A stretch of DNA of 64,000 nt from the sequence record NC_070871.1, one strand, 5' to 3'. The notes under the pieces were generated by a model. It did not search any database. It saw only the letters and a program-made list of their open reading frames with translations, and was not told the origin of the DNA. The first letter of the stretch is position 1. Each line of letters opens with the position of its first letter. A program made the position numbers and the translations under genes. Of this stretch, positions 40,086 to 57,837 are shown one piece after another. This DNA is from Escherichia phage PGN829.1.

Positions 40086-40103
40086 TAGTCCGAAATAAAA
40101 CAA

Positions 40104-40128
40104 GGGGGACATTAGTCCCCCTCTTAAT
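40104..40128 (+). terminator. intrinsic terminator after the major capsid gene
   Basis: 7-bp stem GGGGGAC/GTCCCCC, ATTA loop, then TCTTAATAAAA. Confidence 0.5.
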
Positions 40129-40152
40129 AAAACTAAATGAACCACAGGAAAT

Positions 40153-40794
40153 ATGAACATGAGCATTAACGATAAACCGACCGCTGACGTAGAAGTAAAC
40201 GTACAGGGCAACGAAGATACCGTTAACGATATTGCAATGCCTAGTGAACTTGAAGTTCTTAAGCAACGTGCAACGTTGATGAATATCAAGTTCTCTAACA
40301 ACATCTCCGTTGAAAAACTTCGTGAAAAAATTGAAGCAGCACAAGTAAAAGATGAACCAGTAGTAGAAGAAGCTGCTGTTAATCCGCTTGGTGAAAAACA
40401 GGAAGCTGGTGTTAAGAAGATGACTCTTGGTCAAAAGATTCGTGCAGAACAGACTCGACTGATTCGTGTACGTATCCAGAACCTTGACCCTAAGAAGAAA
40501 GACCTACCAGGTGAGATTATCACCGTAGCTAACGAATATATGGGTACTGTGCGTAAGTTTGTTCCATTCGGTGAAGTAACCGACAATGGTTATCACATTC
40601 CGTATTGTATCTACGAGTTCCTTAAAGAGCGTAAGTTCATCAACATTACGACCCGTAAAGGTAAGAATGGCTTACCGGATATTCGTGCAACTGAAGCACG
40701 AGAGTTCTCCATTGAGGTACTGCCTCCGTTGACTGAAGCTGAATTAGCTCAACTAGCTCAGGCACAGATTGCTGCTGGTAGCCTGAACGATTAA
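40153..40794 (+). CDS. virion structural protein
   Basis: 213-aa ORF downstream of MCP. Confidence 0.35.
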   Translation: MNMSINDKPTADVEVNVQGNEDTVNDIAMPSELEVLKQRATLMNIKFSNNISVEKLREKIEAAQVKDEPVVEEAAVNPLGEKQEAGVKKMTLGQKIRAEQTRLIRVRIQNLDPKKKDLPGEIITVANEYMGTVRKFVPFGEVTDNGYHIPYCIYEFLKERKFINITTRKGKNGLPDIRATEAREFSIEVLPPLTEAELAQLAQAQIAAGSLND

Positions 40795-40864: not shown

Positions 40865-41707
40865 ATGATTATGTCTTGTTCTGCTGAGGTAGAAGCTAAC
40901 CGACTCCTAGAAGAGTTGACTAAGGGTGATGACTTTACCCTTCCCGATGTTGATATGACTGGTCCCGAATGGGATATCCCAGGTGGGGATGATTCTCCAA
41001 TCTTTGGTGCTATTGATAAAATATCCAATGAATCCCTTACTACCCGTGAAGTAGGTGGTAGTGGTACGTTTGATGCATTAATGGAATCTGCACATAATCA
41101 CCTTAAAGCTGAGTTTAAAGCTAACCGTATTACCGGTGGTGAATATACCAAAGCATACATTGCTATGATGGAATCTTGCATGAGCAATGCTGTTCAGTTC
41201 TTACTTGGTCGTGACCAGGCATACTGGGCTGCTGCTATGGCACAGATTCAGGCAGTTACTGCTCGTGTTCAACTGGCAACTTCTAAGGCACAGTTTGTGC
41301 TGGCTAAGATTCAGGCACTGTCTGCTAAGAGTGAATATGCTCTTACTAAGATGAAGATTGCTACTGAGTCTGAAACATACTGTGCTGCACTGTTTAATGC
41401 TAACCAGATGTTACCTCAACAGCTTAAATTGCTTACTGAGCAGACTGAAGCACAACGTGCACAGACACTTGATACCCGTAGTGATGGAGCTACTGTTACT
41501 GGTTCTGTAGGTAAACAGAAAGAGTTGTACTCACAACAGATTACTTCTTATCAACGTGATGCAGAGGTTAAAGCATCTAAGCTGTTTACTGATGCATGGA
41601 TTACTCAGAAGACTATTGATGAAGGCTTGAATCCACCAAATGGTTTCACTAACGCAAGTATTGATACCATTCTGACCAAGCTGAAGTCTAACAACGGGCT
41701 GAACTAA
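40865..41707 (+). CDS. virion structural protein
   Basis: 280-aa ORF, coiled-coil-rich (AQ-rich heptads). Confidence 0.35.
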
Positions 41708-41708
41708 T

Positions 41709-44363
41709 ATGGGCTTATTCAGTGGGAAGACCAAAGTATACGTAGCATCCTCTGTCTATAACATGGCAGGGGATATACATAAACGCCCTAACTATATGAA
41801 GACTGTAGTTATAGGTAATATTGTTTCCAATACAGGATTCACTATGGCAGATACTATCTCTGATAGTTATCTGAATGGGCCAGGTATTCGTATGCGACTG
41901 TTCTCCAGCTGGAGTAAGAACCACTATGATTCAGTAGTTGGTATGGCTGGTTCTTCATTGGGTGTATTGGCTAAGATTGACCCTACCGTTATAGAGGGTC
42001 AAATTACACCCCCTGCTGGTGAATCAGTCTATGTTCAGGCAGCAGAGATTGGCTTTGCTGACTTTGAGCAATGGTGTGACCAGTATCTTTATGAGAATGC
42101 TCCAAGTCGAATCATGGAACGATTCGACATAGATATTGATGAAGATACTAATGAAATCACTATGACCTCCTTAGATGGAGGCTCTACTATTACATTCACA
42201 CCTACTAACTTTGAACCAGGTGCTTTATATCTCTATGCTGATTACTCATTCTATAAGTCCCCTTCTACTAATCCTCCGGTAGTAGGACCGACTACTGTCT
42301 ATGATGATGAGGATGACTTACCTTCCACTTTGTTATGGACTACCGTCTCAAGTGATACGACGGCTAACACAACCAATCTTACTAAGACTATACATACTCA
42401 TTCTGTTTACTCTGATGGCAGACCGGATGAAGACAGTACTGTCACAGAACCAAGTGTGGATAACTGGAACTCTTACGTTAAAGTTTATCGTAGAGGATTC
42501 ACTGAGAAACCCGATGATGTGACTGTAGTTGTATCTGACAGGGTAATGACTCATACAAAATTTGGTGAGATTCAATCCAGTACTTCTGTAACTACTAATG
42601 TGGTTGATATAGGTGGAGGTGTTACTCGTACAGATACAATCACTACAACCACAGAGACACTGGTTCGTAAGTACTCATCCCAGACTACCCGTACTGATAC
42701 CGAGATGACTGCTGTTAGTACACCTAAAATGCTTATTTATAAGCAGAACTCCGGTAACGTTGCACTGGATTCTTTGTTCGAGACTGAAGCTACTGATAAC
42801 CGATTCTACCCATTCATTCCAATCAGGAATGATAAACAATGGGTAGAGAATGACCCAATCTACCCTCACTGTAAGAAAGCCCTTTATAAAGCTACTGGTG
42901 GAAAAATTGATAAAGTAGTCACAGAGCTTAAGAAGAATGATGATATAGGAGATATTCAGTACATCTATGGTTCATTCGGTGTATCCCTTAATACTCCTGA
43001 GGATACTGCTAAGGAATATATCTACCGTTTCTTTCAGATGGCTACTGAAGCATTCCCACCTGACCCAACCTACCCAACACTGGAAGCAGTGATTGCAGGC
43101 TATCAGGCAGCAAACGATGCAGTTGATGCATACGTAGAATGGTGGAACAGGCAGGAAGGTCAGATTGTTGGAACACCTCCACCATTACCAGAATACCCAG
43201 TCATACCTAAGCGTGAGTTTAGGGTACATAGTAATAAGCAATACAAGTACGATATGACTATTGGCTGGAACTATGTATCTGAAACTACCCATTCAGGACA
43301 AGCATGGTCTGGTGCTAAGCAAGGACAACTTCGAGCCAGATATGCGGGAGATATAACGCTTACTCGTAAGAACATACGTACTGCTAGTAACTCTGGTTCA
43401 GTTAAGAAGTTGGAAGTTACTACTACATTTTACTCTATGCAGGAGTATGAGTTACTTTGGCAGGATGGTAATGACACTTACCGTAAACTTAGAGTATTGG
43501 GTCTAAACCACAATAACAGGGTATATAAGAATAAGTCAGTGCATATTGACGTTGCCGAAGCAATGGGGGATGCAGAGGAGAGTGGGTTCATTATCCCGCT
43601 GCACACCAATATTTACCGTTCAATGTCACTGGTTCGTAGTACACAGCTGTCTACTGCCTGTTCCTACTTAGTGATGAACTCATATAAGAAAGTTAAGCAG
43701 AAGTGGTACACAACATCTGCCTTTAAGATTGTGGTTGTTGTAGTTGCTGTCGTTGTATCTGTATTTACTATGGGTGCTGGTGGTGCAGGTATTCTTGGGG
43801 CATACGGTGCAGTTGGTGCATCCCTGGGTTTTGTTGGATTAGCTGCTGTAATAGTTGGTGCTGTAGCAAACGCAATTGCTGCAATGATTCTGGTATCTAT
43901 TATCACAAAAGTATCCACTTCATTGTTCGGTGATAAGCTAGGTTTTATCATTGCTGCTATTGCCTCAATGGTAGCCATGAACGTTGGTACTGCTTTGTCT
44001 ACTGGTACATCCTTATCCTCCCTAGCTGGTGAAATGATGAATGCTCAAAACATCATGCAGCTTACCAGTTCGGTAGGTAATGGTATTAGTCAGTATATTA
44101 ATGCATCCACGGCTGCTACTATTCAGAAAGCAGAGAATATAATGCAGCAGTACAATACTGATATGATGGCAATCAATAAGCAGTATGAAGAAATGTTTGG
44201 TACTGCTGGACAGGGTGTGATTGACCCCATGCAATTCGTGTCAATGGAGTCGTTGGATTCATTCTTGTCACGTACTCTCATGACTGGTTCAGATATAGCT
44301 GACTTGTCCTTAGACATGGTTGGCAACTACTCTGATATGACTCTTAATACTGACCTTGTTTAA
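41709..44363 (+). CDS. large internal virion protein with C-terminal multi-helix Gly/Ala-rich membrane region (candidate ejection/channel protein)
   Basis: 884 aa; C-terminal VVVVVAVVVSVFTMGAGGAGILGAYGAVGASLGFVGLAAVIVGAVANAIAAMILV... hydrophobic bundle. Confidence 0.4.
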   Translation: MGLFSGKTKVYVASSVYNMAGDIHKRPNYMKTVVIGNIVSNTGFTMADTISDSYLNGPGIRMRLFSSWSKNHYDSVVGMAGSSLGVLAKIDPTVIEGQITPPAGESVYVQAAEIGFADFEQWCDQYLYENAPSRIMERFDIDIDEDTNEITMTSLDGGSTITFTPTNFEPGALYLYADYSFYKSPSTNPPVVGPTTVYDDEDDLPSTLLWTTVSSDTTANTTNLTKTIHTHSVYSDGRPDEDSTVTEPSVDNWNSYVKVYRRGFTEKPDDVTVVVSDRVMTHTKFGEIQSSTSVTTNVVDIGGGVTRTDTITTTTETLVRKYSSQTTRTDTEMTAVSTPKMLIYKQNSGNVALDSLFETEATDNRFYPFIPIRNDKQWVENDPIYPHCKKALYKATGGKIDKVVTELKKNDDIGDIQYIYGSFGVSLNTPEDTAKEYIYRFFQMATEAFPPDPTYPTLEAVIAGYQAANDAVDAYVEWWNRQEGQIVGTPPPLPEYPVIPKREFRVHSNKQYKYDMTIGWNYVSETTHSGQAWSGAKQGQLRARYAGDITLTRKNIRTASNSGSVKKLEVTTTFYSMQEYELLWQDGNDTYRKLRVLGLNHNNRVYKNKSVHIDVAEAMGDAEESGFIIPLHTNIYRSMSLVRSTQLSTACSYLVMNSYKKVKQKWYTTSAFKIVVVVVAVVVSVFTMGAGGAGILGAYGAVGASLGFVGLAAVIVGAVANAIAAMILVSIITKVSTSLFGDKLGFIIAAIASMVAMNVGTALSTGTSLSSLAGEMMNAQNIMQLTSSVGNGISQYINASTAATIQKAENIMQQYNTDMMAINKQYEEMFGTAGQGVIDPMQFVSMESLDSFLSRTLMTGSDIADLSLDMVGNYSDMTLNTDLV

Positions 44364-44820
44364 CAGGAGAATCCCCATGGATTTGTCATTCTTAACAGGC
44401 AACCCAACTCCACAGCCAGCTGCTATGTCTTGGATGCCTAATAACAATCAGAACTTTAATACCCCGACTATGAACTATAACCCAGGTGCAACTATTGGTA
44501 TGGGGGCAAATACAGGAGTAGCCTCCCCTACTTCTTTCCTGTCTGGTTCAGCTGATCAGTTGGGATTGAATGTACCTACCTTCCAGTTAGGCTTGGGTGC
44601 ACTTGGTTCATTAGCTAATATCTACAGTGGTTTCCAGGCTAATAAGTTAGCCAAAGACCAGTTGAACTTTACCAAAAGTGTTACTAACACTAACCTGAAT
44701 AACCAGATTAAGTCTTATAACACTGCACTGGAAGACCGTGCTCGTAGTCGTGCTACGGCAGAAAACCGTGACCAGTCTACTGCTGATGCTTATATTGCAG
44801 CTAATAAACTAACTCGTTAA
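44356..44820 (+). CDS. virion protein
   Basis: 154-aa ORF overlapping the upstream stop by 8 nt. Confidence 0.35.
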   Translation: MFNRRIPMDLSFLTGNPTPQPAAMSWMPNNNQNFNTPTMNYNPGATIGMGANTGVASPTSFLSGSADQLGLNVPTFQLGLGALGSLANIYSGFQANKLAKDQLNFTKSVTNTNLNNQIKSYNTALEDRARSRATAENRDQSTADAYIAANKLTR

Positions 44821-44892: not shown

Positions 44893-45429
44893 ATGAAACA
44901 ATATCCAAACTCAAATATTAACGTTCAGTGGAAACCTGCTCATATGGTTAATTCTGGCTGCAAATTTTCTACTAAAACCGAAGATGGTAGTAAGACATGC
45001 TCTGCATACATAAGATGGTGGGGTATGTTTATGCGGTGTTACAATCCTACCAATCCTGGTTATCCTCAATATGGTGCTAAAGGAGTTGTTGTTAGCAAAG
45101 AGTGGGGTAACTACCAAGACTTTGCTCAATGGTACTATGATTCCTGTTTTCTTTTAGGCATTGATCCGGAAAACAATAACTTCCAACTGGATAAAGATAA
45201 TGGGCCTGTCCCTGAGTATAGTCCAAAAGTTTGTAAACTAGTCCCAGTGTCTGACAATGTAGCTAAGGCTAATAGTAAATCACACTGGTACATAAACCCC
45301 AATGGTGACATTGTGGAAATCATTAATTTAAACAAATTCTGCCGTGAGCATGGGTTAAGTCGCAAACAAATGTATCGTTTGCGGGATGGAACTTGTGAAT
45401 CTCACCGAGGATGGAGGCTTTACGTATGA
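44893..45429 (+). CDS. homing-endonuclease-like protein (paralog of the 15111-15704 product) inserted in the late operon
   Basis: 178 aa; shares W..M.RC, F..W and LDKDN...P.NCK-like motifs with the 197-aa product; Cys/His-rich. Confidence 0.4.
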   Translation: MKQYPNSNINVQWKPAHMVNSGCKFSTKTEDGSKTCSAYIRWWGMFMRCYNPTNPGYPQYGAKGVVVSKEWGNYQDFAQWYYDSCFLLGIDPENNNFQLDKDNGPVPEYSPKVCKLVPVSDNVAKANSKSHWYINPNGDIVEIINLNKFCREHGLSRKQMYRLRDGTCESHRGWRLYV

Positions 45430-47390
45430 GTCAGATAACCTGGCGTAATGTTGATGCACCTAACTTTTCTGGAGTTGGTGACAGCATTCGCACATTTGGC
45501 AATATGATTGGTAACGCTACCTCCGGCTTAAGTGATGCACTGGGTAATTTCCAGAACGCTGCTAAGCAGGAGGCTGGCAATGCCGTCATGATGAATGCTA
45601 TGCAATACCAAGACCCTACTGAGTATCGTAATGCTTTGGCATCTGGTGCATTGTTCCAGGGGGTTGACCCTTCACTTGTAAGTCAACGCACTCTCCAGAA
45701 TCTGGATGAGCGAGCAGGTACTCTTCTGACTCAGCAAGGTCAGCAGGGAGCCAATGACTACAATGCTTATCGTTTTGGTCGTTTACAGGACACTGACTCT
45801 GCATTAGATAATGCATCCCCAGCTATTCGTTTATTGTCTGAGGCTTATCAGTCTGGTGACCAGAATCGTATTAATGCTGCACTGGGTCAGACACGAGAGG
45901 CATTATCGGCACTCCCTGCTGACCAACAGTTGGAGATGTTAGGACGTCTTCAAGGTCAAGGTGGTGCTGCTATTAACCAAGCACAAAACCGTTTTGATTT
46001 GGGTGTGGCTCAACGTAACGATGCGGATAGTCAGGCTGCTTTAGGTGTAATGTCACAAATTACCCGTGGTGCTGAGAACCCCAATGATGCTCGTTTGTTG
46101 GCAGAAGCATATAGTAAGAACCTTTCCCCTGTTGCACAGGCACGTTTACAGGAAATGCTTGCTCGTGCATACCCGGGTGTTTACGGCAATAATGTTGGTG
46201 CTACATCCGCTCCCGGTACTGCTGGTACTCGTCAGGGTTCTCCTTATGATGTTACTTATCAGTTTGCTGGTACATCTACCCCTATTACTCAAATGAGTAT
46301 TGGTGATGTAATTAAACATCAGGACGTTATGAAGACTAATCAGGGTGCTTCACCTGTTGGTGCATTCCAGATTAACCAAGCTACTCTGCAAGACTTTGCC
46401 CCCAAAGTTCTTGGTTCAGATTGGAAGAATCAGCCTCTTTCCCCTGAGAACCAGGAGAAGATTGGTAAGGCTATCTTCGAGGCTCGTAAGAACGGCAATC
46501 TTAAAGATACCTGGGCTGCTTTACCTAACTCTACCCCAGGTGCTTATAAGGATATGACTTGGGAACAGATTAAACCTGTTATTGCCCAAGCTGAAGTAGG
46601 GGCTGACCCATTTAATCTGACTCAGAATAGTCAAGGGAATCAGGCAGTATCTACCTTGGCTCAGGGTATGATTGGTACTCGCTCTATGCAGGATAATACC
46701 GGTAGTCTTAATACCGATTTCCTGGGTACTGTCACCGATAATACTCCAGTAGGTGAGATTGCTAATCGTCTGCTGGATGGTGACTTTAAGGGTGCTGACC
46801 GTAACTGGGTACTTAACAGATTAACTGATATTTCTCAACGTGGGAATATGTCACCAGCTATGGCTGCTGCTGTTATGCAACGTGCACAGACCGGTGTACC
46901 AGAAGGATACATTAGCCGTGCTATTGATGCGGTTAACCCATTCATTACTAATGAAGCCGGTAATGGTATGCGTCTTAATGACCGTCTGGTAGATCAGTTA
47001 ATTGAGGGTGTACAACGAGGTGAACCACTGGAAGGAAGTGTACGTAATCTTGGGCGTGCTCAAGCTATGCAGAACATTCAGGCAGCACAGACTGCTTATG
47101 ATGCTGCTGTAGCTGCACTGACAAATACCCAGAACAAGATTAACACTGGACAAACTGGACTTACTGCATTGTTACCTGCACGTCAGGAAGCTGTTACTAA
47201 AGCTGCTGCAATGCTTCAAGCTGCACAAGCCCAGGTACAAGCAGACCCAGCTAATCTGGCTCCAAGAGGTTTTCGGTCACAGGCTAGCGTGGACAGAGCA
47301 CGAGCCAAGGAAGATGAAGAACGTGCTGCACGTTACCTACGTCAGGCACAAGGTTTGCCTGAGTATATGCAACCAAGACAAAATCGGTAA
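45426..47390 (+). CDS. internal virion protein (N4 gp51-like by position, immediately upstream of vRNAP)
   Basis: Trimmed to ATG at 45426 (GGAGG SD); Ala/Gln-rich, likely co-injected protein. Confidence 0.4.
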   Translation: MSQITWRNVDAPNFSGVGDSIRTFGNMIGNATSGLSDALGNFQNAAKQEAGNAVMMNAMQYQDPTEYRNALASGALFQGVDPSLVSQRTLQNLDERAGTLLTQQGQQGANDYNAYRFGRLQDTDSALDNASPAIRLLSEAYQSGDQNRINAALGQTREALSALPADQQLEMLGRLQGQGGAAINQAQNRFDLGVAQRNDADSQAALGVMSQITRGAENPNDARLLAEAYSKNLSPVAQARLQEMLARAYPGVYGNNVGATSAPGTAGTRQGSPYDVTYQFAGTSTPITQMSIGDVIKHQDVMKTNQGASPVGAFQINQATLQDFAPKVLGSDWKNQPLSPENQEKIGKAIFEARKNGNLKDTWAALPNSTPGAYKDMTWEQIKPVIAQAEVGADPFNLTQNSQGNQAVSTLAQGMIGTRSMQDNTGSLNTDFLGTVTDNTPVGEIANRLLDGDFKGADRNWVLNRLTDISQRGNMSPAMAAAVMQRAQTGVPEGYISRAIDAVNPFITNEAGNGMRLNDRLVDQLIEGVQRGEPLEGSVRNLGRAQAMQNIQAAQTAYDAAVAALTNTQNKINTGQTGLTALLPARQEAVTKAAAMLQAAQAQVQADPANLAPRGFRSQASVDRARAKEDEERAARYLRQAQGLPEYMQPRQNR

Positions 47391-47398
47391 TACTAATA

Positions 47399-47421
47399 AA
47401 AGCCCTTCGGGGCTTTTTTCT
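47399..47421 (+). terminator. intrinsic terminator/attenuator between internal-protein gene and vRNAP gene
   Basis: Stem AGCCC/GGGCT with TTCG tetraloop followed by TTTTTTC. Confidence 0.5.
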
Positions 47422-47466
47422 TACACAGGCTTACTGTAGAGTAAGCTTCCTATATACGATATAAGT

Positions 47467-50400
47467 TTGAACAGGAAACATGCTATGTCAACATTTGACC
47501 GTCTGGCAGGTTTCGCAGACAGCATCACTAATGCTAAGCAAGTCGATGTCTCTACTGCAACCTCTCAGAAGCAAGCTGCACAAGGGCAAAGCCCTTTCCA
47601 ATTAACCCCAGAGAATGCTTACAATCTCCAAACTGGTCGTGTAGGTAATCTTGGAATTGGTGCATTCGAACCAGGTTCACTTCAGGCAGATTTCACTCAA
47701 GCCTCCCCATTAGAAATCCTTAATAAATACGGTAATGAGCAAGGTCTACAGATTATTAATAGCCGAGCTAATGCTGCTGATGTTGTACGTCAGGACTTAT
47801 CTAAACAACGTACTAACGCGGAAGCATTTGGTGATACTCTTTCTGGTGTTGGTCTTGGTGTTGCTAATACCCTTGGGGGCATTGCTGCTCTTGGTACAGG
47901 TCTGGTCAATGATAATGCCGGAGCATCCATTGCTTCCGGGATGGATTGGCTGAATGAAGGTGTACACAATTTACAGTCTGATGCACTGAATGCTACCCGT
48001 AAGGTTGTTCAGAATCAGAACCAGATTTCTGCACAAAAGAACCAGAAGCTCTATGAAGAAGATATTAAAAATGGGGAGAGCAGTTTGGTTGCCTCCCTGT
48101 CTCGCATTGGTCGTGATGCTTTTGATTCTGTTGCTAATACACTTGATAATGGTATGGCTGCTACCGATGGGCTGAGTGAAGGTGTTGGTTCTCTCTTTAC
48201 TGGTGGTCCATTAATTCGTGGTGTATCCGCACTCGGTAAAGTAATGGTAGGTGGAGATAAAGCCGTTAAAGGTATTACCCTAGCTGCTGAGTTAGGTTCA
48301 CGTCCTGCACAGATTGCATTGTCTGCTGGTCGTGTTGCTGCACCTGCTATTGCAATTGGTGGTATGGAAGCTGGTGGTGCATACCAGCAGACTGCTTCTG
48401 AAATCATGAAGATGTCCCATCAAGAATTGGCAAGTAAGTCTCCTGTTTATCAACAACATATCGCTGATGGTTTATCTCCTGATGAAGCACGTCGTCAAAC
48501 TGCATCTGAAACGGGTATCATTGCTGCTAGCTTAACTGCTCCAGTTGCTGCTGCTACTGGTCCACTGGTATCTAAGTTTGAACTTAACCCACTTAAGGTA
48601 GGTTCACTGGCTGGTGCTGGCTCTAACATGCTTCGTGAAACCGTAGAAGAAGGTATTCAGTCTGGTACAAGTCAGTTTGCACAGAACAAGGCAATTCAGG
48701 GTAATGTAGATGCTAAGCGTGATCTGCTTAAAGGTGTCGGTGAGCAAGCAGGTCTTGGTGCACTCTATGGCTTCGGTAGTGCTGGTGTTTCTCAGGCTCC
48801 TGGTGCAACTGTTAAAGCTGTTGGTGCTTCTGCTGGCCCTGCTCTTCGTACTACCCTGGCTGGTGCTTCTCTGGTTGGTAGTGCATTAGCAAAAGCTGCT
48901 TCTCCTATTACTAACATCCTGGTTCAACGTGGTGAAGAAGTTGCTAAGCGTAATGAACAAGCATCCCCTGTATCTGATGCCACTGTTAATGCTGCTGCAC
49001 AAGAAGCTACTGCTCAGGCAGAACAAGCACAAGCAACTGTACAGGAAGCAGTAGATGCAATGGATATTTCTCCTGAAGAGAAAGCTGCTGCTACTCAGTA
49101 TGCTGCTGACTTAACTCAGGCAATGAAGTTTGACCCAGTAGAGTTAGAGCAAGCTAATCCAGCAATCCGTGAAGCCGTTTCTGGTTCCACTAACCGTGTT
49201 GAAGCTATTCAGAAGATGGCTGACCTGGTTAATACTGCCGAAGACCCTAACGTTCAAATGGAAGCTGCAATCCAGATGTATGACAATATCATGTCTATGG
49301 ATAGCTTCATTAACCGTGACCCAGGTGCTCTGGCTAACCTGGAACAAGGTTCCCCTGCTGCTGCAATCGTTGACCAGTTCTCTGGTCTGATGGCTAACGT
49401 TCAGAATACACCTAAAGTACTTCGTGCATTCCGTGCTATTCATTCTATGATTCAGGAACAGGCTGAAGCAGGTAAACTGAAAGCTACTGAAGAAGCCAAC
49501 CAAGCCCAAGCAAACAATATTGCTATGGCTGCTGATATGTCTCCAGAAGTACTGGATGCTGATTCAGTGAACATGATTCTGAAACATGCAAGTGAAGGTA
49601 AGATTACACTGGGGAATCATCAGCGTGCTGCCCTGCAATCGGCTGCTGCCTTGTTACAGGGTGCACGAGAATTTGATGCTAAAGCAGAAGAACTAGGCTT
49701 ACGTCCTCAAGACATTGTTAGTAAACAGATTAAAACCGACGAGTCTCGTTCTAATGAAGGTCAGTACTCTGCGTTGCAACATGCTAAACGCATTCGTTCT
49801 GCGTACAACTCTGGTAATTTCGATTTGGCTTCCGCTTACCTCGACGACTTTATGAAGTTCGCCCAGCACATGCAGAATAAGGTCGGAGCGTTGAATGAGC
49901 ATCTGATTTCTGGGAATGCGGATAAGAATAAGTCTGTCCATTATCAGGCTCTTACTCCCTCCCGTGAATGGGTACGTAGTCGTACTGGTCTTGGTGTCAA
50001 TCCGTATGATACCAAGTCGGTTAAGTTTGCCCAGCAAGTAGGACTGGAGGCCAAAACCGTAGCTGATATTGCTAACGCACTTGCTACGGCTTACCCGGAG
50101 CTTAATGTTTCTCATGTGAAGGTTACTCCATTAGATTCACGTCTGGACAAGCCTGCTGCCCAGGTAGTTAAAGAGTTCCGTCAAGGTGGTCTTGATGCCA
50201 CTCAGTCTCAACAGACCAATGAACCAGTGAATCAGGTTGATGAAACTCCTGCACCAGCGCAAGAGACTACTACTACTGTACAGCCTAAAGCTAAACCAGT
50301 GGTAGAAAATAAGACTGTTCCTGTTAAAGAGGCTAGTTCAAAAGCAGAAGAAGTCTCTACTACTAAGTCTGAAACAGTAGATGCTACCCTCACCAATGAG

Positions 50401-53400
50401 GATACCACTCAAAAAGTAGCTGAAACTAAAACGGAAATGGAAACAGTTTTCCCTGTCTATAACAATGACAAGACACCGAACCAGTTCCTGAAATCATTTA
50501 CCCTGCCGGAAGAACCTAAGTCTCGCACCATTGGTTCTGAATCCCCTTTGACTGATATTAAGCAAGCACTGTCTTCTACTGCACGCTTTGAAGCATTCAC
50601 TCAAAAAGAAAATAACGCTCTCACAAGTGATGTGATTAAGCGTTATCAGGACTTAATGGGCTTTGGTGAAACTCTGAAGACTACTCTGTCTGATCGTCTG
50701 GCTAAGTTTCTTGCTAATAAGAACGTTGGTAAACGCTTTGCAGAAGGCACAGAGGCTAACCGTTGGGTAGGTGGTAAGTTACTTAATATCGTAGAGAAAG
50801 ACGGAGACACCTTTAAGTTCAATGACCAGTTGTTAGAGACTGCTGTACTTGCTGGTCTGCAATGGCGACTGACTGCTACACAGAATGCTGCTGTTAAAGA
50901 CATGAAAGATGTAGCTGCTATTACTGGTGTAGAGGCATCTCTGTTACCTGAAGGTATTCTGGCTGACTTCGAGAATGCTCAGACTCTGGTTGAAGCTACT
51001 AACTCACTGGCTCAAAAGATTGAATCTTACTGGGGTTTGAATCGCAATCCAAATGCACCACTGGGTTATACCAAAGGTATCCCAATGGCAATGGCTACGG
51101 AGATTCTGTCTTCTTTCATTGAGATGGGTGAAGTTAAAGAATCTATGCTGGATGTGTCTGAGTTTGACCCAGACTCTAATAAGACCGTCGGTCTGTATAC
51201 CATTGAGAAGCTGGATGATAACGATGCCATTAACAAGTTCCCTACTGCTATCGAGGAAGCTGTTCTCGTAGAACCAGAAGAGAAAATGTACTTTGGTGAT
51301 GATATTCCTTCCGTGGCTCAAACTCAGTTACGTAACCCTGCTGTTAAGAATACCCCAGAGCAGAAAGCTGCTCTTAAAGCAGAACAGGCTACCGAGTTCC
51401 GTGTACACATGCCGATGGTTAACTTCTATGAAGCATTAGGTCGTGACAACATTCTGGAACTGATGGGTGCTGGTACTCTTAATCCTGAACTGCTGAACGT
51501 GAACACTGCTAAGTCACTGGAGGGTAAAAACCTGTCAGTGTCTATGGCATATGATTCCCTGTTCGGTGTAATCAACCAGTTACAGGAACAGGAGAATGGT
51601 CTGGATACGCCTATTCACTATGGTTACAACATGACCCGTGTAGGTCGTATGCAGATGTTAGGTAAGAACAACCCACAATCCAGTAAACTGGTTCGTGAAG
51701 CAATTCTGCCAACCTTCTCTACTATTGACTTGAGTAATGAAAATAGCCAAACATTCTCTGACTTCCAGCTAGGACTGGCTCAGGCATTGGGTATCAAGGT
51801 ACATAACATGTCCCGTGAAGCTATGTCTGAAAAGTTGACCAAGGCTCTGGAAGGTAATCTGAAACCTGCCGTTGATATGGTGGTTGAGTTTGATAAGTCT
51901 GGTCACTTACCAGCTAATGCAGTGGATATTCTGAAAACATCTCTGGGCGGCGATAAATCATTCGTAGCTCTTATGGCTCTTATGGAATATGCCCGTTACC
52001 TGAACAGTGATGACCGTGCCAACTTTAATACCCCTCTGTACGTTGAAGCCGATGGTGTAACTAACGGACCAATCAACGCAATGGTATTAATGACCGGTGG
52101 TAAGTTCACTTCAGACTGGGTTAAGAATACTGCTAAAGGTGGCTTGTTCTTCGGTAAAGCTGGTAAGACTATGAATGAACATCGTTCACAGGATGACAGT
52201 GTTGACCTGTATGAAGCATCTACCAATGGTCTGCAACAAGCACTTAATGAGTTACGTACTACTTACCGTAACAACGTTCCGGTTATGAACCAAATGAATC
52301 ATCTTCAGAAGTTAATGGACCTGTTTATTAAAGACTTTAACCTGAATGAAGACGGTACTCTGGACCTGAAACGTGGTATCGCTAAAAACCCACTGACTAT
52401 TACCATCTATGGTTCTGGTGCTCGTGGTATTGCTGGCAAGATGGTTAGTGCAATTACTGACACCATCTATGAACGCTTCAGTGATGTTCTGCAAGCTCGT
52501 GCTGCTGACCCTAGCATTTCCCCAGCTATGGCAATGTTTGGTAAGGAGGCTGCGTCTGAGGCTGATGCTCAGGCTATGCTGGATACTTTCCTTACTTCTA
52601 TGGAAGCACTGACTGGTAATGTTCCAGTTATGCGTAAAGGTGAACTGTCTATTCAACAGGTAGAAGGTGCTCTGACTGGTAAGTTAGACCCTCAGAAGTT
52701 TACCGTATCAGGAAATGCTCTGAAGAACTTACAAGAGAACATGCTTCACCTGTTCGTTGAACCAATGCGTACTGGTATCCGTAATACTGTTGGTGAAGGT
52801 CTGATGCATTCTACTGAGAACTTGCAGAAGGCTACCCAGATTCAGTCACTGGTATTGCAGGATATGTTCCAGCAACGTGTCCAGGAGAAGCTAGCAGAAA
52901 AAGAAAAAGACCCAACATGGAAAAAGGGTGATTTCTTAACACAGAAAGAACTGAATGAAATCCAGGAATCATTATCCCCACTAGCTCCAATGATTGAGAC
53001 TGGTTCACAGACTTTCTACATTGCTGGCAGTGAAAATACTGATGTTGCTAACCAAGTTCTGGCTACCAACTTAGATGATCGTATGCGTGTGCCAATGAGC
53101 ATCTATGCTCCTTCACAGGCAGGTGTTGCAGGTATTCCTTTTATGACCATTGGTACTGGCGATGGCATGATGATGCAGACCCTTTCTACTATGAAAGGTG
53201 CTCCGAAGAATACCCTGAAAATCTTTGATGGTATGAACATTGGTATCAACAACATCACTGATGCAAGTCGTAAAGCTAATGAGGCTGTATACACTTCCTG
53301 GCAGGGTAACCCTATCAAGAATGTCTACGACTCCTTCTCTAAGTTCATGAAGAATGTAGACTTCAGCAAACTGTCTGATGAAACCAAACAGGCTATCGCT

Positions 53401-56400
53401 AAATCTGCTCTGGAATATGACCAGCGTGAAGGTGCTACCGATGACCTGTTACGTGTTGGTGCTGAACAGATTGAACGTAACCTGCGTAATATTGCTCTGG
53501 GTGTAGATATTCGTCACAAAGTAATGAACCAGGTACAGACTACTGTTGACCAGATGGCTGCTGTTGGTGCTCCTTATGTGAACAACGGTAAAATCTCTCT
53601 GGAAGGTCTGACCGTAGACCAACAAGTAGCTAAGCTAAATGAACTGTTCGATGCTGAATTAAACAAACGTCGTGATGCAGTACGTGCTGCTAAAGTAGAA
53701 CCAGTGAAAGAAGTGCCAGCAATGGAACAGGTTGGTCGTGTACTGAAGTCTGGTGTACGCCTACTGTCTAATACTGCTATCTCTAAGCTGGCTAAAGAGA
53801 TGTCTCCGGAACAGCAAGCAGTACTGAAAGAAGTACAGAAATCCCTTGCTGCTAAAGACTATAAGGTTGTTTACGGTACACCTTCCCAACTGGATGCTTA
53901 TGCTATTGAGAAGAATATTACTCGCCCAGCACCAGAAGATATTGAAGCTGCTGAAGCTGGTAATGCGTATGGTTGGACTAACTTTGAAGATAAGACCATC
54001 TACTTAGTTACCCCTTCCTTAGAGACTCTGGTTCATGAATTGGTGCATGCTTCTACTTTTGAATCTGTACTGGCTCACTATGAGGGTACTCCTAATGAAG
54101 CGGTCCAGAACATTGAAGACCTGATGAACCAGTTCCGTGCTCTGGATGTTAAGGATGAATCCCCGGCAGTTCGGGAAGCATATGCAGATGCTCTTAATAC
54201 TATTAACGGTCATTTATCTAATGGCTTTATTGAGCCAGCAATGGCTAAAGCTGCTGCACTGAATGAGTACATGGCATGGGGTTTAACCAACCGTGAACTG
54301 ATTAGTAAGCAGAAGAAAACCACTGCACTTAAGACTATGGTTCAGGCTGTATATGAAGCAATTAAACGTCTGGTATTCGGGCGTAAGAAAGCACCAGCTA
54401 ATGCAGATGATATGTTCTCTGGCTTACTGTTTAACTCGTCCGTAGTTATGCGTGGGCAAGCTCCTACTGCTGCTGTAGTCAAAGATACTACTCTGTTCCA
54501 TAACAAAACGTATGGTGACAATACTCGTCTGGAAGAGCTAGGGAAAACCTTCGATAAACTGATTACTGACTACATTGGTTCTGAACCAGTACAGCAAGTA
54601 ATTCGTAAAGGTAAGTTCTCTGATGCAGTGGTTAATGCGACTAAAGTAACTCGTGATGTTCAGGCTCATGGCTTCACTATGAATATGCAGGAACAACGTC
54701 TCTTTACTAACATTGTTGCTGCTCTGGCTACTGAGGCTGCTATTAATCCTGCTGCTCTGGCTCGTGCGCAGGAATACTACACACATGTTACTAAGAACCT
54801 GACCGTTGAGTCATTCATGACTGACCCAGATAGTACTAACCCTGCTGACCGTTACTATGCACAGCAGAAGTTCGATACCATCATGGGTGCTAACAACATT
54901 GAGTTTGATTCACAAGGTCGTTCCTCCTTACTGCCTACCTTTATTGGTCTGGCGATGGTAAGTGAAGAGGTACGTAAAGTGCTGGCTGATATTCCAGTTA
55001 TGAAAGTAGACAAGAAATCTGGCAATACCGCTGATGCAATGCTGACTAACATCGGTACTGCTGCAATGGCTAGTCTGAATGCTCGTGTAGCAGGAGATAC
55101 TAAAGCTACCAACGTACAGGAAGGTATGGATGCACTGGCTCAGACAATCATGCAGACCAGTCTTAATGCACAATCCTTCTATGATTCCGTTGCTACTCCT
55201 ACGGGTAATGCTATTGATCGTGCTAACCAGTATCTGGTGGACTCTATTGATGTACTGTCTACCCGTGCTTTAGAAGGTGCTCGTGAAGTTGCAGCTAATA
55301 CCAAGAACCCGTTGGTTAAAGGTGCTGCCCATGCTGCACAATTAATAGCTGCTATTGCTACAGAGAAGAATGGTGCAATCGTAGCCGAAGGTGTTATGGC
55401 TGCAATGAACCAAGGTAAAGTATGGCAACCCTTTCACGATCTGGTTAATGACTTAACTGGTCGTACTAAGAGTAATGCTTCTGTATATGATTTGATTAAG
55501 GCAGTGCGTGCCCAGGTACAGGCTGACCGTCAACAGTTCCGTGAACATCTGCCCACCACTATCGCATCTAAGTTCAGCCGTAAGCTGACTAATGATGAGT
55601 GGAAAGCAATGCATACCGGTATGGGTAAAACCGACTTAGCTGTTCTGCGTGACACTATGTCTCTGGCTGAAATTCGTGACCTGCTGACTGACCAGAAGAT
55701 TGTTGACCGTGAGGTTAATAAACTGGAAGCAGATTTGCAGAAACAAGCTGGTCGTAACTGGCCTTTGATTAACCGTAAATCTAAGCAACTGGCTCAGTAC
55801 ATGATTAATGGAACAGTTGGTAATAACCTGCTGCGTAATGCTACAGCAATCTCTCGTATGCTGGGTGAACGTCAGGCTGCACGTTCTACTGTAGACGTAG
55901 CTCAACTGGATAAACTGATTACTCTGTATGCACTGGAAGCAATGAGTAAAACTGACCGCGAGGTGTTATCTTCACTGGCTCAGACAGAGATTGAAGGCAT
56001 GGACTTCGCTACTTCTTATCTGGTTGGTCAGCGTAAAGATGAAATGGCTAAAGCCAAATCTGATACTCGTGCAACTCTGAACCAGTACAAAGGGTATATT
56101 CCTGGTGAGACTAAACAGGGTGTTAACTTGATAGTTGCTGAAGATAGTCAGTTTGCTGATTTGATTGAGAAGTCCTATGTACGTCTGGGTACTTATCAGG
56201 GTAGCTCTGCTAATCGTGGTCCAGCACGTAGCTACTACTTTGCACCGGTACAGGCACAGGCTCCATTCTCGCAAGGTATCTTACAGAACGTTCGCAATAC
56301 TGCTGGTGGTGTAGACCTTGGTACAGGCTTTACGATGGGTACAATGGTAGCTGGTCGTATCACTGACAAGCCTTCTGTAGACCGTATCACTAAAGCACTG

Positions 56401-57837
56401 GCTCGCGGTGAACGTGGTAATGAACCACTGCTGCCTGTATATGATGATAAAGGCAATGTGGTTGCTTATGAGCAATCTATTGACCCTAACATGCTGAAGC
56501 ACATTGAGGGTGAGAACCATCTCGCTCGTGCAATCGGTGTATGGCGTGGTCGTCAGGTAGAGGAAGCTAAGGCTCAGCGTTTCAACGATATGCTGATTGA
56601 GAACCTGCATAGCATGTATGAGAACGACATTAAGATGTCTACCTCTAATAAGTCACAGTACGTTAACCTTCTTGGTTCTAAACTGGATCCAGTAACTGCT
56701 GATGCTCTTAAACTGATGAACAGTGAAACTCGTCAGAAAGCAGAAAGTCTGTTTGGTGAAGGTGAACTGTGGGTACGTCGTGACATGCTGAATGATGCAC
56801 TGGGTTATCGTGCAGCTTCTGTAGGTGATGCCTGGTCTGGTAACTCTCGTTGGTCACCGGAAACATTGGATACCTTCAAGAAAGCTATGTTGGGTGTATT
56901 TGGCAACCGTGCTTACAAATATGTAATGGGTGGTGAGAATCTGGTTCAGAACTTAGTTAAAGAAGCCAAAACTCTGATTGTAGTTAAATCAGTAGTTGTG
57001 CCTGCTGTTAACTTCCTGGCTAACCTTTACCAGATGGTCGGTCGTGGTGTACCTGTTAAGAACATTACTAAGAGTATTCCACAGAAGACTGCTGAGATTA
57101 ATCAGTACCTGAAATCTCGTCTGCGTCAGGTAGATGCAGAAGCGGAATTACGTGCAGCTACTAACCCGAACCAGATTCGTAAACTTAAAGCTGAGATTCA
57201 GTCCATCACTGATAGCCATAAGCGTATGAGTATCTGGCCTCTGTTAGAAGCTGGTGAGTTTTCTTCAATTGCAGATGCTGGTATTGGTCGTGATGACATC
57301 CTGATTACTGAAGGTAAACTTCATGAATACATGGATAAGCTGGCTGATAAGTTACCTAAGTCTGTACGTAATGCTGGACGTTATGCACTTATCACCAAAG
57401 ATACTGCTCTGTTCCAGGGTATCCAGAAGACGGTTGAGTACTCTGACTTTATTGCTAAAGCAATCATCTATGATGATTTGACTCAGCGTAAAGGTAAGAC
57501 TCGTGAAGAAGCACTTGGACGTGTAACGGAAGAGTTCATTAACTATGACCGTCTGCCTGGTCGCTTCCGTGGGTATATGGAAAGTGTTGGTCTTATGTGG
57601 TTCTATAACTTTAAGATTCGTTCTGCAAAAATTGCAGTATCCATGATTCGTAACAACCCGGTACACGCAGCTATGGCTATGTTGGCTCCAACTCCTACCA
57701 TGTTTGGTAATGTTGGTTTACCTATTCAGGACAACATCTTCAGTATTGCTGCACAAGGCAATCTCGGTTACTCCTGGGGCTTCGGTCAGGGACTTCGTGC
57801 CCATAACCTTAACCCTTGGCTCAATCTAGCTAACTAA
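47467..57837 (+). CDS. virion-encapsidated RNA polymerase (vRNAP, N4 gp50-like giant protein)
   Basis: Single 3456-aa ORF (N4 vRNAP about 3500 aa); last gene of the late operon, converging on a bidirectional terminator. Confidence 0.9.
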   Translation: MNRKHAMSTFDRLAGFADSITNAKQVDVSTATSQKQAAQGQSPFQLTPENAYNLQTGRVGNLGIGAFEPGSLQADFTQASPLEILNKYGNEQGLQIINSRANAADVVRQDLSKQRTNAEAFGDTLSGVGLGVANTLGGIAALGTGLVNDNAGASIASGMDWLNEGVHNLQSDALNATRKVVQNQNQISAQKNQKLYEEDIKNGESSLVASLSRIGRDAFDSVANTLDNGMAATDGLSEGVGSLFTGGPLIRGVSALGKVMVGGDKAVKGITLAAELGSRPAQIALSAGRVAAPAIAIGGMEAGGAYQQTASEIMKMSHQELASKSPVYQQHIADGLSPDEARRQTASETGIIAASLTAPVAAATGPLVSKFELNPLKVGSLAGAGSNMLRETVEEGIQSGTSQFAQNKAIQGNVDAKRDLLKGVGEQAGLGALYGFGSAGVSQAPGATVKAVGASAGPALRTTLAGASLVGSALAKAASPITNILVQRGEEVAKRNEQASPVSDATVNAAAQEATAQAEQAQATVQEAVDAMDISPEEKAAATQYAADLTQAMKFDPVELEQANPAIREAVSGSTNRVEAIQKMADLVNTAEDPNVQMEAAIQMYDNIMSMDSFINRDPGALANLEQGSPAAAIVDQFSGLMANVQNTPKVLRAFRAIHSMIQEQAEAGKLKATEEANQAQANNIAMAADMSPEVLDADSVNMILKHASEGKITLGNHQRAALQSAAALLQGAREFDAKAEELGLRPQDIVSKQIKTDESRSNEGQYSALQHAKRIRSAYNSGNFDLASAYLDDFMKFAQHMQNKVGALNEHLISGNADKNKSVHYQALTPSREWVRSRTGLGVNPYDTKSVKFAQQVGLEAKTVADIANALATAYPELNVSHVKVTPLDSRLDKPAAQVVKEFRQGGLDATQSQQTNEPVNQVDETPAPAQETTTTVQPKAKPVVENKTVPVKEASSKAEEVSTTKSETVDATLTNEDTTQKVAETKTEMETVFPVYNNDKTPNQFLKSFTLPEEPKSRTIGSESPLTDIKQALSSTARFEAFTQKENNALTSDVIKRYQDLMGFGETLKTTLSDRLAKFLANKNVGKRFAEGTEANRWVGGKLLNIVEKDGDTFKFNDQLLETAVLAGLQWRLTATQNAAVKDMKDVAAITGVEASLLPEGILADFENAQTLVEATNSLAQKIESYWGLNRNPNAPLGYTKGIPMAMATEILSSFIEMGEVKESMLDVSEFDPDSNKTVGLYTIEKLDDNDAINKFPTAIEEAVLVEPEEKMYFGDDIPSVAQTQLRNPAVKNTPEQKAALKAEQATEFRVHMPMVNFYEALGRDNILELMGAGTLNPELLNVNTAKSLEGKNLSVSMAYDSLFGVINQLQEQENGLDTPIHYGYNMTRVGRMQMLGKNNPQSSKLVREAILPTFSTIDLSNENSQTFSDFQLGLAQALGIKVHNMSREAMSEKLTKALEGNLKPAVDMVVEFDKSGHLPANAVDILKTSLGGDKSFVALMALMEYARYLNSDDRANFNTPLYVEADGVTNGPINAMVLMTGGKFTSDWVKNTAKGGLFFGKAGKTMNEHRSQDDSVDLYEASTNGLQQALNELRTTYRNNVPVMNQMNHLQKLMDLFIKDFNLNEDGTLDLKRGIAKNPLTITIYGSGARGIAGKMVSAITDTIYERFSDVLQARAADPSISPAMAMFGKEAASEADAQAMLDTFLTSMEALTGNVPVMRKGELSIQQVEGALTGKLDPQKFTVSGNALKNLQENMLHLFVEPMRTGIRNTVGEGLMHSTENLQKATQIQSLVLQDMFQQRVQEKLAEKEKDPTWKKGDFLTQKELNEIQESLSPLAPMIETGSQTFYIAGSENTDVANQVLATNLDDRMRVPMSIYAPSQAGVAGIPFMTIGTGDGMMMQTLSTMKGAPKNTLKIFDGMNIGINNITDASRKANEAVYTSWQGNPIKNVYDSFSKFMKNVDFSKLSDETKQAIAKSALEYDQREGATDDLLRVGAEQIERNLRNIALGVDIRHKVMNQVQTTVDQMAAVGAPYVNNGKISLEGLTVDQQVAKLNELFDAELNKRRDAVRAAKVEPVKEVPAMEQVGRVLKSGVRLLSNTAISKLAKEMSPEQQAVLKEVQKSLAAKDYKVVYGTPSQLDAYAIEKNITRPAPEDIEAAEAGNAYGWTNFEDKTIYLVTPSLETLVHELVHASTFESVLAHYEGTPNEAVQNIEDLMNQFRALDVKDESPAVREAYADALNTINGHLSNGFIEPAMAKAAALNEYMAWGLTNRELISKQKKTTALKTMVQAVYEAIKRLVFGRKKAPANADDMFSGLLFNSSVVMRGQAPTAAVVKDTTLFHNKTYGDNTRLEELGKTFDKLITDYIGSEPVQQVIRKGKFSDAVVNATKVTRDVQAHGFTMNMQEQRLFTNIVAALATEAAINPAALARAQEYYTHVTKNLTVESFMTDPDSTNPADRYYAQQKFDTIMGANNIEFDSQGRSSLLPTFIGLAMVSEEVRKVLADIPVMKVDKKSGNTADAMLTNIGTAAMASLNARVAGDTKATNVQEGMDALAQTIMQTSLNAQSFYDSVATPTGNAIDRANQYLVDSIDVLSTRALEGAREVAANTKNPLVKGAAHAAQLIAAIATEKNGAIVAEGVMAAMNQGKVWQPFHDLVNDLTGRTKSNASVYDLIKAVRAQVQADRQQFREHLPTTIASKFSRKLTNDEWKAMHTGMGKTDLAVLRDTMSLAEIRDLLTDQKIVDREVNKLEADLQKQAGRNWPLINRKSKQLAQYMINGTVGNNLLRNATAISRMLGERQAARSTVDVAQLDKLITLYALEAMSKTDREVLSSLAQTEIEGMDFATSYLVGQRKDEMAKAKSDTRATLNQYKGYIPGETKQGVNLIVAEDSQFADLIEKSYVRLGTYQGSSANRGPARSYYFAPVQAQAPFSQGILQNVRNTAGGVDLGTGFTMGTMVAGRITDKPSVDRITKALARGERGNEPLLPVYDDKGNVVAYEQSIDPNMLKHIEGENHLARAIGVWRGRQVEEAKAQRFNDMLIENLHSMYENDIKMSTSNKSQYVNLLGSKLDPVTADALKLMNSETRQKAESLFGEGELWVRRDMLNDALGYRAASVGDAWSGNSRWSPETLDTFKKAMLGVFGNRAYKYVMGGENLVQNLVKEAKTLIVVKSVVVPAVNFLANLYQMVGRGVPVKNITKSIPQKTAEINQYLKSRLRQVDAEAELRAATNPNQIRKLKAEIQSITDSHKRMSIWPLLEAGEFSSIADAGIGRDDILITEGKLHEYMDKLADKLPKSVRNAGRYALITKDTALFQGIQKTVEYSDFIAKAIIYDDLTQRKGKTREEALGRVTEEFINYDRLPGRFRGYMESVGLMWFYNFKIRSAKIAVSMIRNNPVHAAMAMLAPTPTMFGNVGLPIQDNIFSIAAQGNLGYSWGFGQGLRAHNLNPWLNLAN

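Follow-up and report, generated by a model that had tools for sequence, protein, structure and literature searches.

An 884-residue protein of a G7C-like phage is probably the tail plug, an ortholog of coliphage N4 gp53

In this study, we identify an 884-aa protein encoded in the window (the whole stretch of DNA analysed, 64,000 nucleotides) as the probable tail plug of a Schitoviridae phage and ortholog of coliphage N4 gp53, a reading to which we give a probability of roughly 85%. Its gene lies at 41709..44363 on the plus strand and consists of an ATG start, 884 codons and a stop codon; coordinates, strand and length had all been given exactly by the initial annotation. The phage is a Gamaleyavirus (G7C-like Schitoviridae). 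The tail plug is an already known protein and not a new membrane channel.

The identity of the protein is supported by matches over its full length. With PDB 9YFT chain FA, 'Gp53' of N4, it aligns at E=0 and 1058 bits, residues 1-883 to residues 1-883. Plug residues 1-883 also match positions 1-847 of the 850 positions of phrog_2220. The plug of Pseudomonas phage DEV (PDB 9ZE4_M) was found by phmmer at E 9e-17, and an AF2 model of our protein matches the same chain in Foldseek at E 5e-18 and probability 1.00; the Foldseek library comprised releases to April 2026 and was without 9YFT. Sequence identity is 91% to the plug of G7C, 70% to Moo19 gp70, 58% to KP8 ORF71 and 55% to N4 gp53, to which the protein is colinear over its full length (9YFT FA; Bellis et al., Nat Commun 2026, PMC13434306). 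The orthologs of Shigella phage Moo19 and Klebsiella phage KP8 were published without an assigned function. N4 gp53 and the plug share an MGLFS start, the beta-feather region, the hydrophobic module and the C-terminal motif, and in both phages the gene lies between tail tube and gp52. They are 69% and 78% identical over the two hydrophobic segments (69% in aa 674-720), whereas the feather is only ~39-49% identical. In DEV gp74 (9ZE4 chain M; PMC12892993), which caps a dodecameric tube as a single copy, both the core and the C-terminal hydrophobic module are homologous to those of our protein; gp74 reaches a TM-score of 0.54 on target with the plug model, at ~12% identity in the structural alignment. 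It differs in its length of 740 aa, in being held by a gp56-gp55-gp54 receptor-binding fibre, and in having no beta-feather (PMC13434306).

The initial annotation had taken the protein for a virion component, and the orthologs bear this out. N4 gp53 was detected in virions by LC-MS and was built into cryo-EM density (PMC13434306), and Moo19 gp70 was found in virions by MS, while the Moo19 plug density was too weak for modelling (PMC11654681). The DEV plug is likewise known from the virion (PMC12892993). The GenBank records of pSb-1 and Bp4/Uz-1 have two CDS in place of one plug gene. Since the break points differ and one base is missing from the total length, these splits look like single-base sequencing errors, and for the same reasons we rejected a programmed split at the hydrophobic module.

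The surrounding genes are strictly syntenic in the order MCP, 213-aa protein, tail tube, plug, gp52, gp51 and virion RNA polymerase (vRNAP). The tail tube, an ortholog of N4 gp54 which the plug would seal, is encoded at 40865..41707 (plus strand; phrog_2050). It matches PDB 9D80_C, the Moo19 tail tube, at E 4e-148 and N4 Gp54 (9LC0, 9YF4, 9YFT) at E 6e-124, and its TAA stop stands one base ahead of the plug ATG. Downstream of the plug follows a gp52-like ejection protein at 44377..44820 (plus strand), the counterpart of the N4 outer-membrane channel, which matches PDB 9YF4_OA, the N4 16.5 kDa protein, at E 6e-46 with the alignment starting at ORF residue 8. Its start is likely ATG 44377 rather than TTG 44356; an AGGAG Shine-Dalgarno sequence is located 7 nt upstream of this ATG, and relatives are annotated with a 444-nt CDS at this locus. 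As opposed to the strong AGGAG of gp52, the Shine-Dalgarno sequence of the plug gene is weak, and its ATG is coupled to the stop of gp54, a difference that would fit one copy versus twelve or more. Next is a gp51-like ejection protein (45411..47390, plus strand; phrog_6126), corresponding to the N4 periplasmic tunnel and matching PDB 11MN_A, residues 1-359 of the N4 '66 kDa protein', at E 1e-127. The gp50 ortholog, vRNAP, is the ORF at 47467..57837 (plus strand); its start is likely ATG 47485, at the equivalent of which relatives are annotated with the beginning of a virion RNA polymerase.

With its gene beside the vRNAP cassette, the protein is part of the genome-delivery apparatus, as had been supposed. 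The ejection proteins gp14, gp15 and gp16 of T7 and gp52, gp51 and gp50 of N4 are likewise adjacently encoded, hydrophobic and involved in genome delivery. However, these are multi-copy, expelled and channel-forming, whereas the plug would be single-copy at the tube exit, as in N4, and is without sequence similarity to them. We also considered the hydrophobic module as a duplicated ejection-protein module and rejected this, as BLASTP of aa 660-884 against the gp52-like and gp51-like proteins of the window gave E values of at least 1 and revealed no relation to these neighbours.

The domain layout of the plug, all on the plus strand, starts with N-terminal helices at aa 29-56 (41793..41876), which align without offset to N4 residues 29-56, where the N4 'hydrophobic knot' has its first segment. 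AF2 predicts helices at aa 29-40 and 46-55, and the N-terminal 60 aa are among the best-conserved parts of the protein (majority fraction 0.70). AF2 strands delineate a long beta-sheet protrusion, the 'feather', at aa ~205-340 (42321..42728), with strands 211-234, 241-266, 272-302 and 305-335 predicted at good pLDDT. The feather is the least conserved segment and is missing from P0106 and P0113, two family members of ~740 aa. A kinship of the feather with aerolysin-type beta-pore-forming toxins or with ssRNA-phage maturation proteins was discarded; the Foldseek hits were weak (probability <=0.47, TM-scores <=0.13) and were judged to reflect a generic likeness of long beta-sheets. The second knot segment, aa 674-720 (43728..43868), consists of a Val-rich helix and the Gly/Ala-rich motif GxLGxxxxVGxxxGFxGxxAxIxG and aligns to N4 residues 670-716 with an offset of +4. 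Hydropathy indicates further hydrophobic helices at aa 721-770 (43869..44018; ANAxAAMIL..., GFIIAAIASMVA...). The C-terminal tail, aa 771-884 (44019..44360), is polar by composition and carries a conserved end motif, evident from invariant columns; its helices are predicted by AF2 at low confidence. In the AF2 model, pLDDT is mostly 75-95 for aa 8-670 and 31-50 for aa 688-805, where no confident fold is given, aa 688-726 lying below 50.

The hydrophobic C-terminal region described by the initial annotation is real, yet it extends over about 100 residues, aa 673-770, and not over roughly 200, the last ~115 residues being polar. The stretch quoted there, VVVVVAVVVSVFTMGAGGAGILGAYGAVGASLGFVGLAAVIV, corresponds to plug aa 675-716. 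Kyte-Doolittle 19-residue windows of >=1.6 are confined to aa 665-765. There are 48 of them, whereas 2000 shuffled versions of the protein had 2.9 on average and never more than 29, and the clustering of hydrophobicity is beyond chance. Only five charged residues occur in aa 666-790 (K673, K734, D742, K743, E775). By a crude Hessa-scale sum, aa 674-692 and 714-732 have insertion-competent values (<=0), and aa 693-713 and 744-765, though hydrophobic, are borderline. The predicted helical region aa 771-884 carries 15 charges per 94 residues. Within aa 1-650, hydropathy reveals no signal peptide and no N-terminal transmembrane (TM) segment, the highest 19-residue value being 1.17. TM helices had been expected, and TMHMM/Phobius indeed predicted four for the KP8 ortholog (58% identity; PMC6950046). 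As to the term 'glycine-zipper-like', small-xxx-small motifs are clustered in the hydrophobic region, but no Pfam glycine-zipper family matches aa 660-884 even at E<=10, and the term is descriptive only. The sole Pfam match of aa 660-884 at E<=10 is a spurious one to Chordopox_A30L (13.6 bits), and the whole plug has no Pfam match at E<=0.01.

Judged from an alignment of the plug family (77-96 sequences, identity down to 33%), the hydrophobic region is among the most conserved parts of the protein. No substitution of G697, G703 or G707 occurs in the 96 sequences, and G694, L696, V702, G710, A713, G717, N721, A722, A724 and A725 are nearly invariant in 77-96 sequences. G745 and G766 are nearly invariant, too. 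This conservation is position-specific rather than merely hydrophobic and fits tight, specific packing. The C-terminal end motif is strongly conserved as well (E847, R855, T856, G860). A phmmer search with aa 660-884 returned 843 cluster representatives, proteins of ~670-970 aa, and in all 150 matches listed the module is located C-terminally on gp53-sized proteins or fragments, with no other domain context. The module is retained in distant subfamilies, such as Salmonella SP-058 and Vibrio D520. Vibrio phage orthologs of the plug carry the name 'TMhelix containing protein'.

In N4, gp53 is a one-copy tail plug in a 12:6:1 symmetry mismatch, the gp54 tube is corked by a hydrophobic knot in which residues 29-56 and 670-716 are folded into six short helices, and the last ~160 residues are disordered in the tail lumen (PMC13434306). 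The N4 plug model stops at residue 724 (PMC12633501), equal to plug aa ~728 in our phage. Orthology to gp53, synteny and conservation were observed directly; for this G7C-like phage we infer, by analogy, an N4-like plug and knot arrangement. A single plug would cap the dodecameric gp54 tube at its distal end and keep DNA and ejection proteins inside. The N-terminal ~670 residues would form a globular core and the beta-sheet feather outside the tube, while aa 674-720 and aa 29-56 would fold together as a compact hydrophobic knot, and this knot would be wedged as a cork into the opening of the tube. The remaining ~160 residues, i.e. two more hydrophobic helices and the polar helical tail, would run up into the tail lumen, where gp52 copies would be waiting. 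Upon receptor engagement by the tail receptor-binding proteins the plug would be displaced sideways, and this would free gp52, then gp51 and then vRNAP to build the trans-envelope conduit. The N4 authors hypothesise that the luminal tail serves as a tether or 'ripcord' for gp52.

The initial annotation had proposed that the C-terminal helices are a membrane-inserting bundle, plausibly part of a trans-envelope channel; DNA and the 3450-aa polymerase would pass through it. The hydrophobic segments, three to four in number and two of them at an insertion-competent score, would agree with such a role, as would the four TM helices predicted in the KP8 ortholog (PMC6950046), the Vibrio 'TMhelix containing protein' names and the location of the gene beside the ejection cassette. 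This channel role is nevertheless very improbable. A plug present in one copy per virion, as in N4, with 3-4 hydrophobic helices cannot line a channel of ~35 Å, and the quoted segment has been solved as the knot inside the N4 tail tube, a cork and not a membrane element, in a plug that empty particles still have seated on their tails (PMC13434306). It is for gp52 and gp51 that channel activity was shown, and the channel is assigned to gp52, gp51 and gp50, whose homologs lie directly downstream of the plug in the window; no similarity links the module to the homologs of gp52 and gp51. Even less probable, to the point of being barely credible, is a function of the hydrophobic helices in assembly only, as an inner-membrane anchor in the infected cell with no role in the virion. 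Cytoplasmic synthesis of helices this hydrophobic should bring them to the membrane-insertion machinery, and N4 gp51 and gp52 do act as membrane proteins when expressed alone (PMC13434306). Yet the first hydrophobic segment is seen as a folded cork in the virion (PMC13434306), and the hydropathy of aa 1-650, with its maximum of 1.17, speaks against a signal peptide or N-terminal TM segment.

A plug that is in addition membrane-active, at the first step of infection, is quite unlikely. Here the C-terminal ~160 residues (the helices of aa 721-770 and the polar tail), perhaps along with the unfolded knot, would exit first upon unplugging, insert into the outer membrane and either anchor the tail tip or prime insertion of the gp52 channel. 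Analogies are offered by the hydrophobic loops of the phi29 tail-knob protein gp9 and by hydrophobic C-terminal portions of tape-measure proteins in siphophages. The helices past the solved knot are conserved (N721, G745, G766), the conserved C-terminal motif implies a specific partner, and the luminal position ahead of gp52 makes this part of the plug first in line for exit (PMC13434306). On the other hand, the conservation is explained just as well if this part of the plug touches gp54 and gp52 within the tube, and empty N4 particles retain a seated plug, although in that case DNA had left in vitro without a membrane. That specifically aa ~729-884 are the first polypeptide out and insert into the outer membrane, which would make the plug not only the gate but also what initiates or anchors the gp52 channel, is an unlikely proposal; the four helices scored by TMHMM in the KP8 ortholog are compatible with a later membrane-bound state.

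Under the tail plug reading that we favour, the means by which the plug is held must differ between G7C-like phages and N4. In N4, the plug core is held by domains D9-D10 of the gp65 sheath. No gp64/gp65 sheath homolog is found in the interval from adaptor (26938-27648) to portal (34998-37268), which has genes for an endolysin, a spanin and two tailspikes whose N-terminal domains are of the G7C/Moo19/CBA120 type. Thus, where N4 has its gp64/gp65 sheath, the phage studied here carries branched tailspikes. As there is no sheath gene in the syntenic interval, the N4 contact between gp53 and gp65 D9-D10 cannot exist here, and the gating contacts must be different ones. Release in G7C-like phages would have to be triggered via the branched tailspikes.

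The role of the plug in N4-like phages was settled only in 2025-26, and in this study the protein was re-identified from raw sequence. Nearly all database records of its orthologs read 'hypothetical protein', which gives the identification practical value for annotation. Moreover, it leads to two well-posed questions on the biology of these phages, namely the role of the conserved TM-like luminal tail in ejection, and the retention and release of the plug in tailspike-bearing G7C-like phages.

The product of the 884-codon ORF (41709-44363, + strand, ATG start and stop codon) is not a new protein: it is the Gamaleyavirus ortholog of gp53, the tail plug of phage N4; coordinates, strand and length agree exactly with the initial annotation. 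DNA of the region is 90-95% identical to most Gamaleyavirus genomes, and by sequence the phage is a G7C-like N4-type coliphage (Gamaleyavirus, Schitoviridae). The plug protein is 99.3% identical to its counterpart in phage VTCCBPA_322, 91% in G7C, 70% in Shigella phage Moo19 (gp70), 58% in Klebsiella phage KP8 (ORF71) and 55% in N4. Orthologs are labelled 'hypothetical protein' in nearly all records. The plug matches phrog_2220 end to end, and the match to PDB 9YFT chain FA ('Gp53', N4; E=0, residues 1-883 to 1-883) establishes orthology. A weaker match (E 9e-17) is 9ZE4 chain M from the tail-gating complex of Pseudomonas phage DEV, named 'N4 gp53-like protein', which Foldseek also finds with the AlphaFold2 model of the plug (E 5e-18). 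BFVD matches of the model are exclusively Schitoviridae-type podovirus proteins, some named 'TMhelix containing protein'. In GenBank, the plug gene is annotated as two CDS in pSb-1 (L005 301-2954) and Bp4/Uz-1 (L006 301-2954). Since the break sites differ and both spans fall one base short of the gene in the window, a genuine split was rejected in favour of single-base sequencing errors.

The N4 'tail-gating complex' was solved by Bellis et al. (PMC13434306; preprint PMC12633501). A single copy of gp53 sits on the dodecameric gp54 tube, in a 12:6:1 mismatch with the sheath, and lies mostly outside the tube as a globular core bearing a beta-sheet 'feather'. The tube base is corked by a 'hydrophobic knot', six short helices contributed by residues 29-56 and 670-716. 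The receptor-binding sheath protein gp65 binds the plug through its domains D9-D10, and empty particles retain the plug (PMC13434306). Both gp51 and gp52 form pores in lipid bilayers; the body text describes gp52 as the outer-membrane channel and gp51 as the periplasmic tunnel (PMC13434306). The abstract of the same paper assigns the reverse, gp51 to the outer-membrane complex and gp52 to the periplasmic tunnel; we followed its results, figure legends and discussion. The homologous plug of DEV, gp74, has no feather and is retained by the gp56-gp55-gp54 receptor-binding fibre (PMC12892993). Moo19 gp70 (96 kDa) is described as 'similar to N4's gp53', and the tube tip of Moo19 shows weak unmodelled density (PMC11654681). 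That the protein is part of the virion, as initially proposed, is supported by the detection of its orthologs in virions, N4 gp53 by LC-MS (PMC13434306) and Moo19 gp70 by MS (PMC11654681).

The hydrophobic C-terminal region is present, but its extent had been overstated: it comprises approximately 100 residues, whereas aa 771-884 are polar and predicted to be helical. All Kyte-Doolittle windows (19 residues) of at least 1.6 fall within aa 665-765, while the highest value in aa 1-650 is 1.17. The plug has 48 such windows, and 2000 shuffles of its own sequence gave 2.9 on average and never more than 29; hydrophobic clustering thus exceeds chance. Charged residues in aa 666-790 are limited to K673, K734, D742, K743 and E775. 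On a crude Hessa-scale sum, aa 674-692 and 714-732 score as insertion-competent and aa 693-713 and 744-765 as marginal. The TM-like helices noticed initially hold up, and for KP8 ORF71 four TM domains were predicted by TMHMM/Phobius, its authors guessing at a structural role (PMC6950046). The term glycine-zipper is not backed by Pfam, in which the plug matches no family, glycine-zipper families included.

In the phmmer alignment, plug residue 610 pairs with N4 residue 606, and N4 670-716 therefore corresponds to plug aa 674-720. The hydrophobic sequence quoted in the initial annotation is aa 675-716. By alignment, this 'glycine-zipper-like' stretch corresponds to the second half of the knot resolved in N4, where it is a tail-tube cork and not a membrane bundle. 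The hydrophobic helices of aa 721-770 and the polar tail of aa 771-884 correspond to the luminal part of N4 gp53 left unresolved in the structure.

Homologs were aligned in sets of 26 and then 96 sequences (lowest identity 33%). The hydrophobic module ranks with the most conserved parts of the plug, with majority fractions of 0.67 (aa 673-720) and 0.61 (aa 721-770) as compared to 0.41-0.57 in the central domains. The first helix (aa 674-687) exchanges V, I, L and A freely; in the motif after it, conservation is specific to individual positions. G697, G703 and G707 are invariant, and G694, L696, V702, G710, A713, G717, A720, N721, A722, A724, A725, G745 and G766 nearly so; in the C-terminal tail E847, R855, T856 and G860 are invariant. 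Such residue-specific conservation of small residues, along with an Asn amid the hydrophobic residues of a helix, is consistent with packing that is both tight and specific. Distant subfamilies, e.g. Salmonella phage SP-058 (775 aa) and Vibrio phage D520 (704 aa), retain the MGLFS N-terminus, the KWYQTGxFK lead-in with the block of about 100 hydrophobic residues, and the polar tail. An exhaustive phmmer query with aa 660-884 gave 843 cluster representatives; each of the 150 listed has the module at its C-terminal end and is a plug-sized protein or a fragment of one. Least conserved is the feather (aa ~205-340), which is missing from members of ~740 aa.

The AlphaFold2 model, built from 96 homologs (mean pLDDT 72.8), is confident over aa 8-670 and establishes the core fold, a globular core with four very long strand pairs (aa 211-335); the hydrophobic knot is not reproduced in it. 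With the feather (window 42321-42728), Foldseek gave weak matches to aerolysin-family beta-pore-forming toxins (Mpp75Aa1, parasporin-2, aerolysin, epsilon toxin) and to ssRNA-phage maturation proteins. Kinship with either was rejected because probabilities and TM-scores (at most 0.13) are too low.

Gene order from the major capsid gene through the virion RNA polymerase gene (vRNAP) is as in N4, establishing synteny. The major capsid gene (38883-40085, +) is followed by a gene for a 213-aa protein and by the tail tube gene gp54 (40865-41707; matches to PDB 9D80_C and N4 Gp54). The plug ATG lies one base past the gp54 stop (TAAtATG, 41705-41711) and has no clear Shine-Dalgarno sequence. Downstream, the gp52-like gene (44377-44820; N4 16.5 kDa protein in 9YF4) has AGGAG at the canonical distance, 7 nt upstream of ATG 44377 (44364-44379), and its mechanical ORF start, TTG 44356, is probably wrong. 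This contrast in Shine-Dalgarno sequences would fit one plug copy versus at least 12 copies of gp52, and the 1:12 stoichiometry reported for N4. The gp51-like gene (45411-47390; N4 66 kDa protein in 11MN) precedes vRNAP. Following the annotation of relatives, vRNAP most likely starts at ATG 47485 (MSTFD...) rather than TTG 47467, which gives a protein of ~3450 aa, not 3456. Directly past the gp51-like stop and ahead of vRNAP, a GC-rich hairpin is followed by a T-run (AAAAGCCCttcgGGGCTTTTTT; 47398-47487).

An HNH endonuclease ORF (44893-45429, +, 178 aa; phrog_2081, E 7e-38) sits in an extra segment of ~590 bp between the gp52-like and gp51-like genes, its 3' end overlapping the gp51-like start. 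The segment is absent from most Gamaleyavirus relatives (the gp52/gp51 gap of VTCCBPA_322 is 13 nt) and is carried, unannotated, by phage ST4; the ORF looks like a mobile homing endonuclease inside the ejection-protein cassette. Just 5' of the major capsid gene, a 406-aa protein (37646-38866, +) matches phrog_2120, whose label, 'tail length tape measure protein', is implausible for a short-tailed phage at this position; the label is probably wrong and the protein head- or scaffold-related. A 472-aa antisense ORF with ATG start (38886-40304, -) spans the whole major capsid gene; it is unusually long but most likely open by chance.

Between the head-to-tail adaptor (26938-27648) and the portal (34998-37268), where N4 has its sheath genes gp64/gp65, no such genes were found (26938-37268). 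The window phage instead encodes two tailspikes here, one of 1059 aa (27639-30818), whose N-terminus matches Moo19 and B2 tail proteins, and one of 628 aa (31164-33050) with a CBA120/G7C-type N-terminal adaptor domain; endolysin (33873-34508) and spanin (34468-34995) follow. The gp53-gp65 contact of N4 therefore cannot exist in this phage.

Tail plug is the best-supported reading of the ORF product. Membership in the delivery apparatus, as initially proposed, holds. The more specific idea of a trans-envelope channel component is not supported, because the N4 plug is single-copy, the segment in question was solved inside the tube in N4, and gp52 and gp51 are the proteins credited with channel activity; these are encoded next door, and the module showed no sequence relationship to their homologs in the window. 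The functional guess was right in its neighbourhood and wrong in its mechanism. We consider it unlikely that the luminal C-terminal part is the first to exit and then contacts the outer membrane or inserts into it; hydrophobic loops of phi29 gp9 and C-termini of siphophage tape-measure proteins would be analogies. For the tail plug, copy number, knot, luminal tail and retention on empty particles are drawn from the literature, and an N4-like arrangement in the window phage, as any role of the luminal tail, is presumed by analogy. One plug copy would cap the gp54 tube, with aa 29-56 and 674-720 as the cork and aa 721-884 reaching into the lumen beside gp52. Receptor engagement would displace the plug, and gp52, gp51 and vRNAP would be freed in turn.
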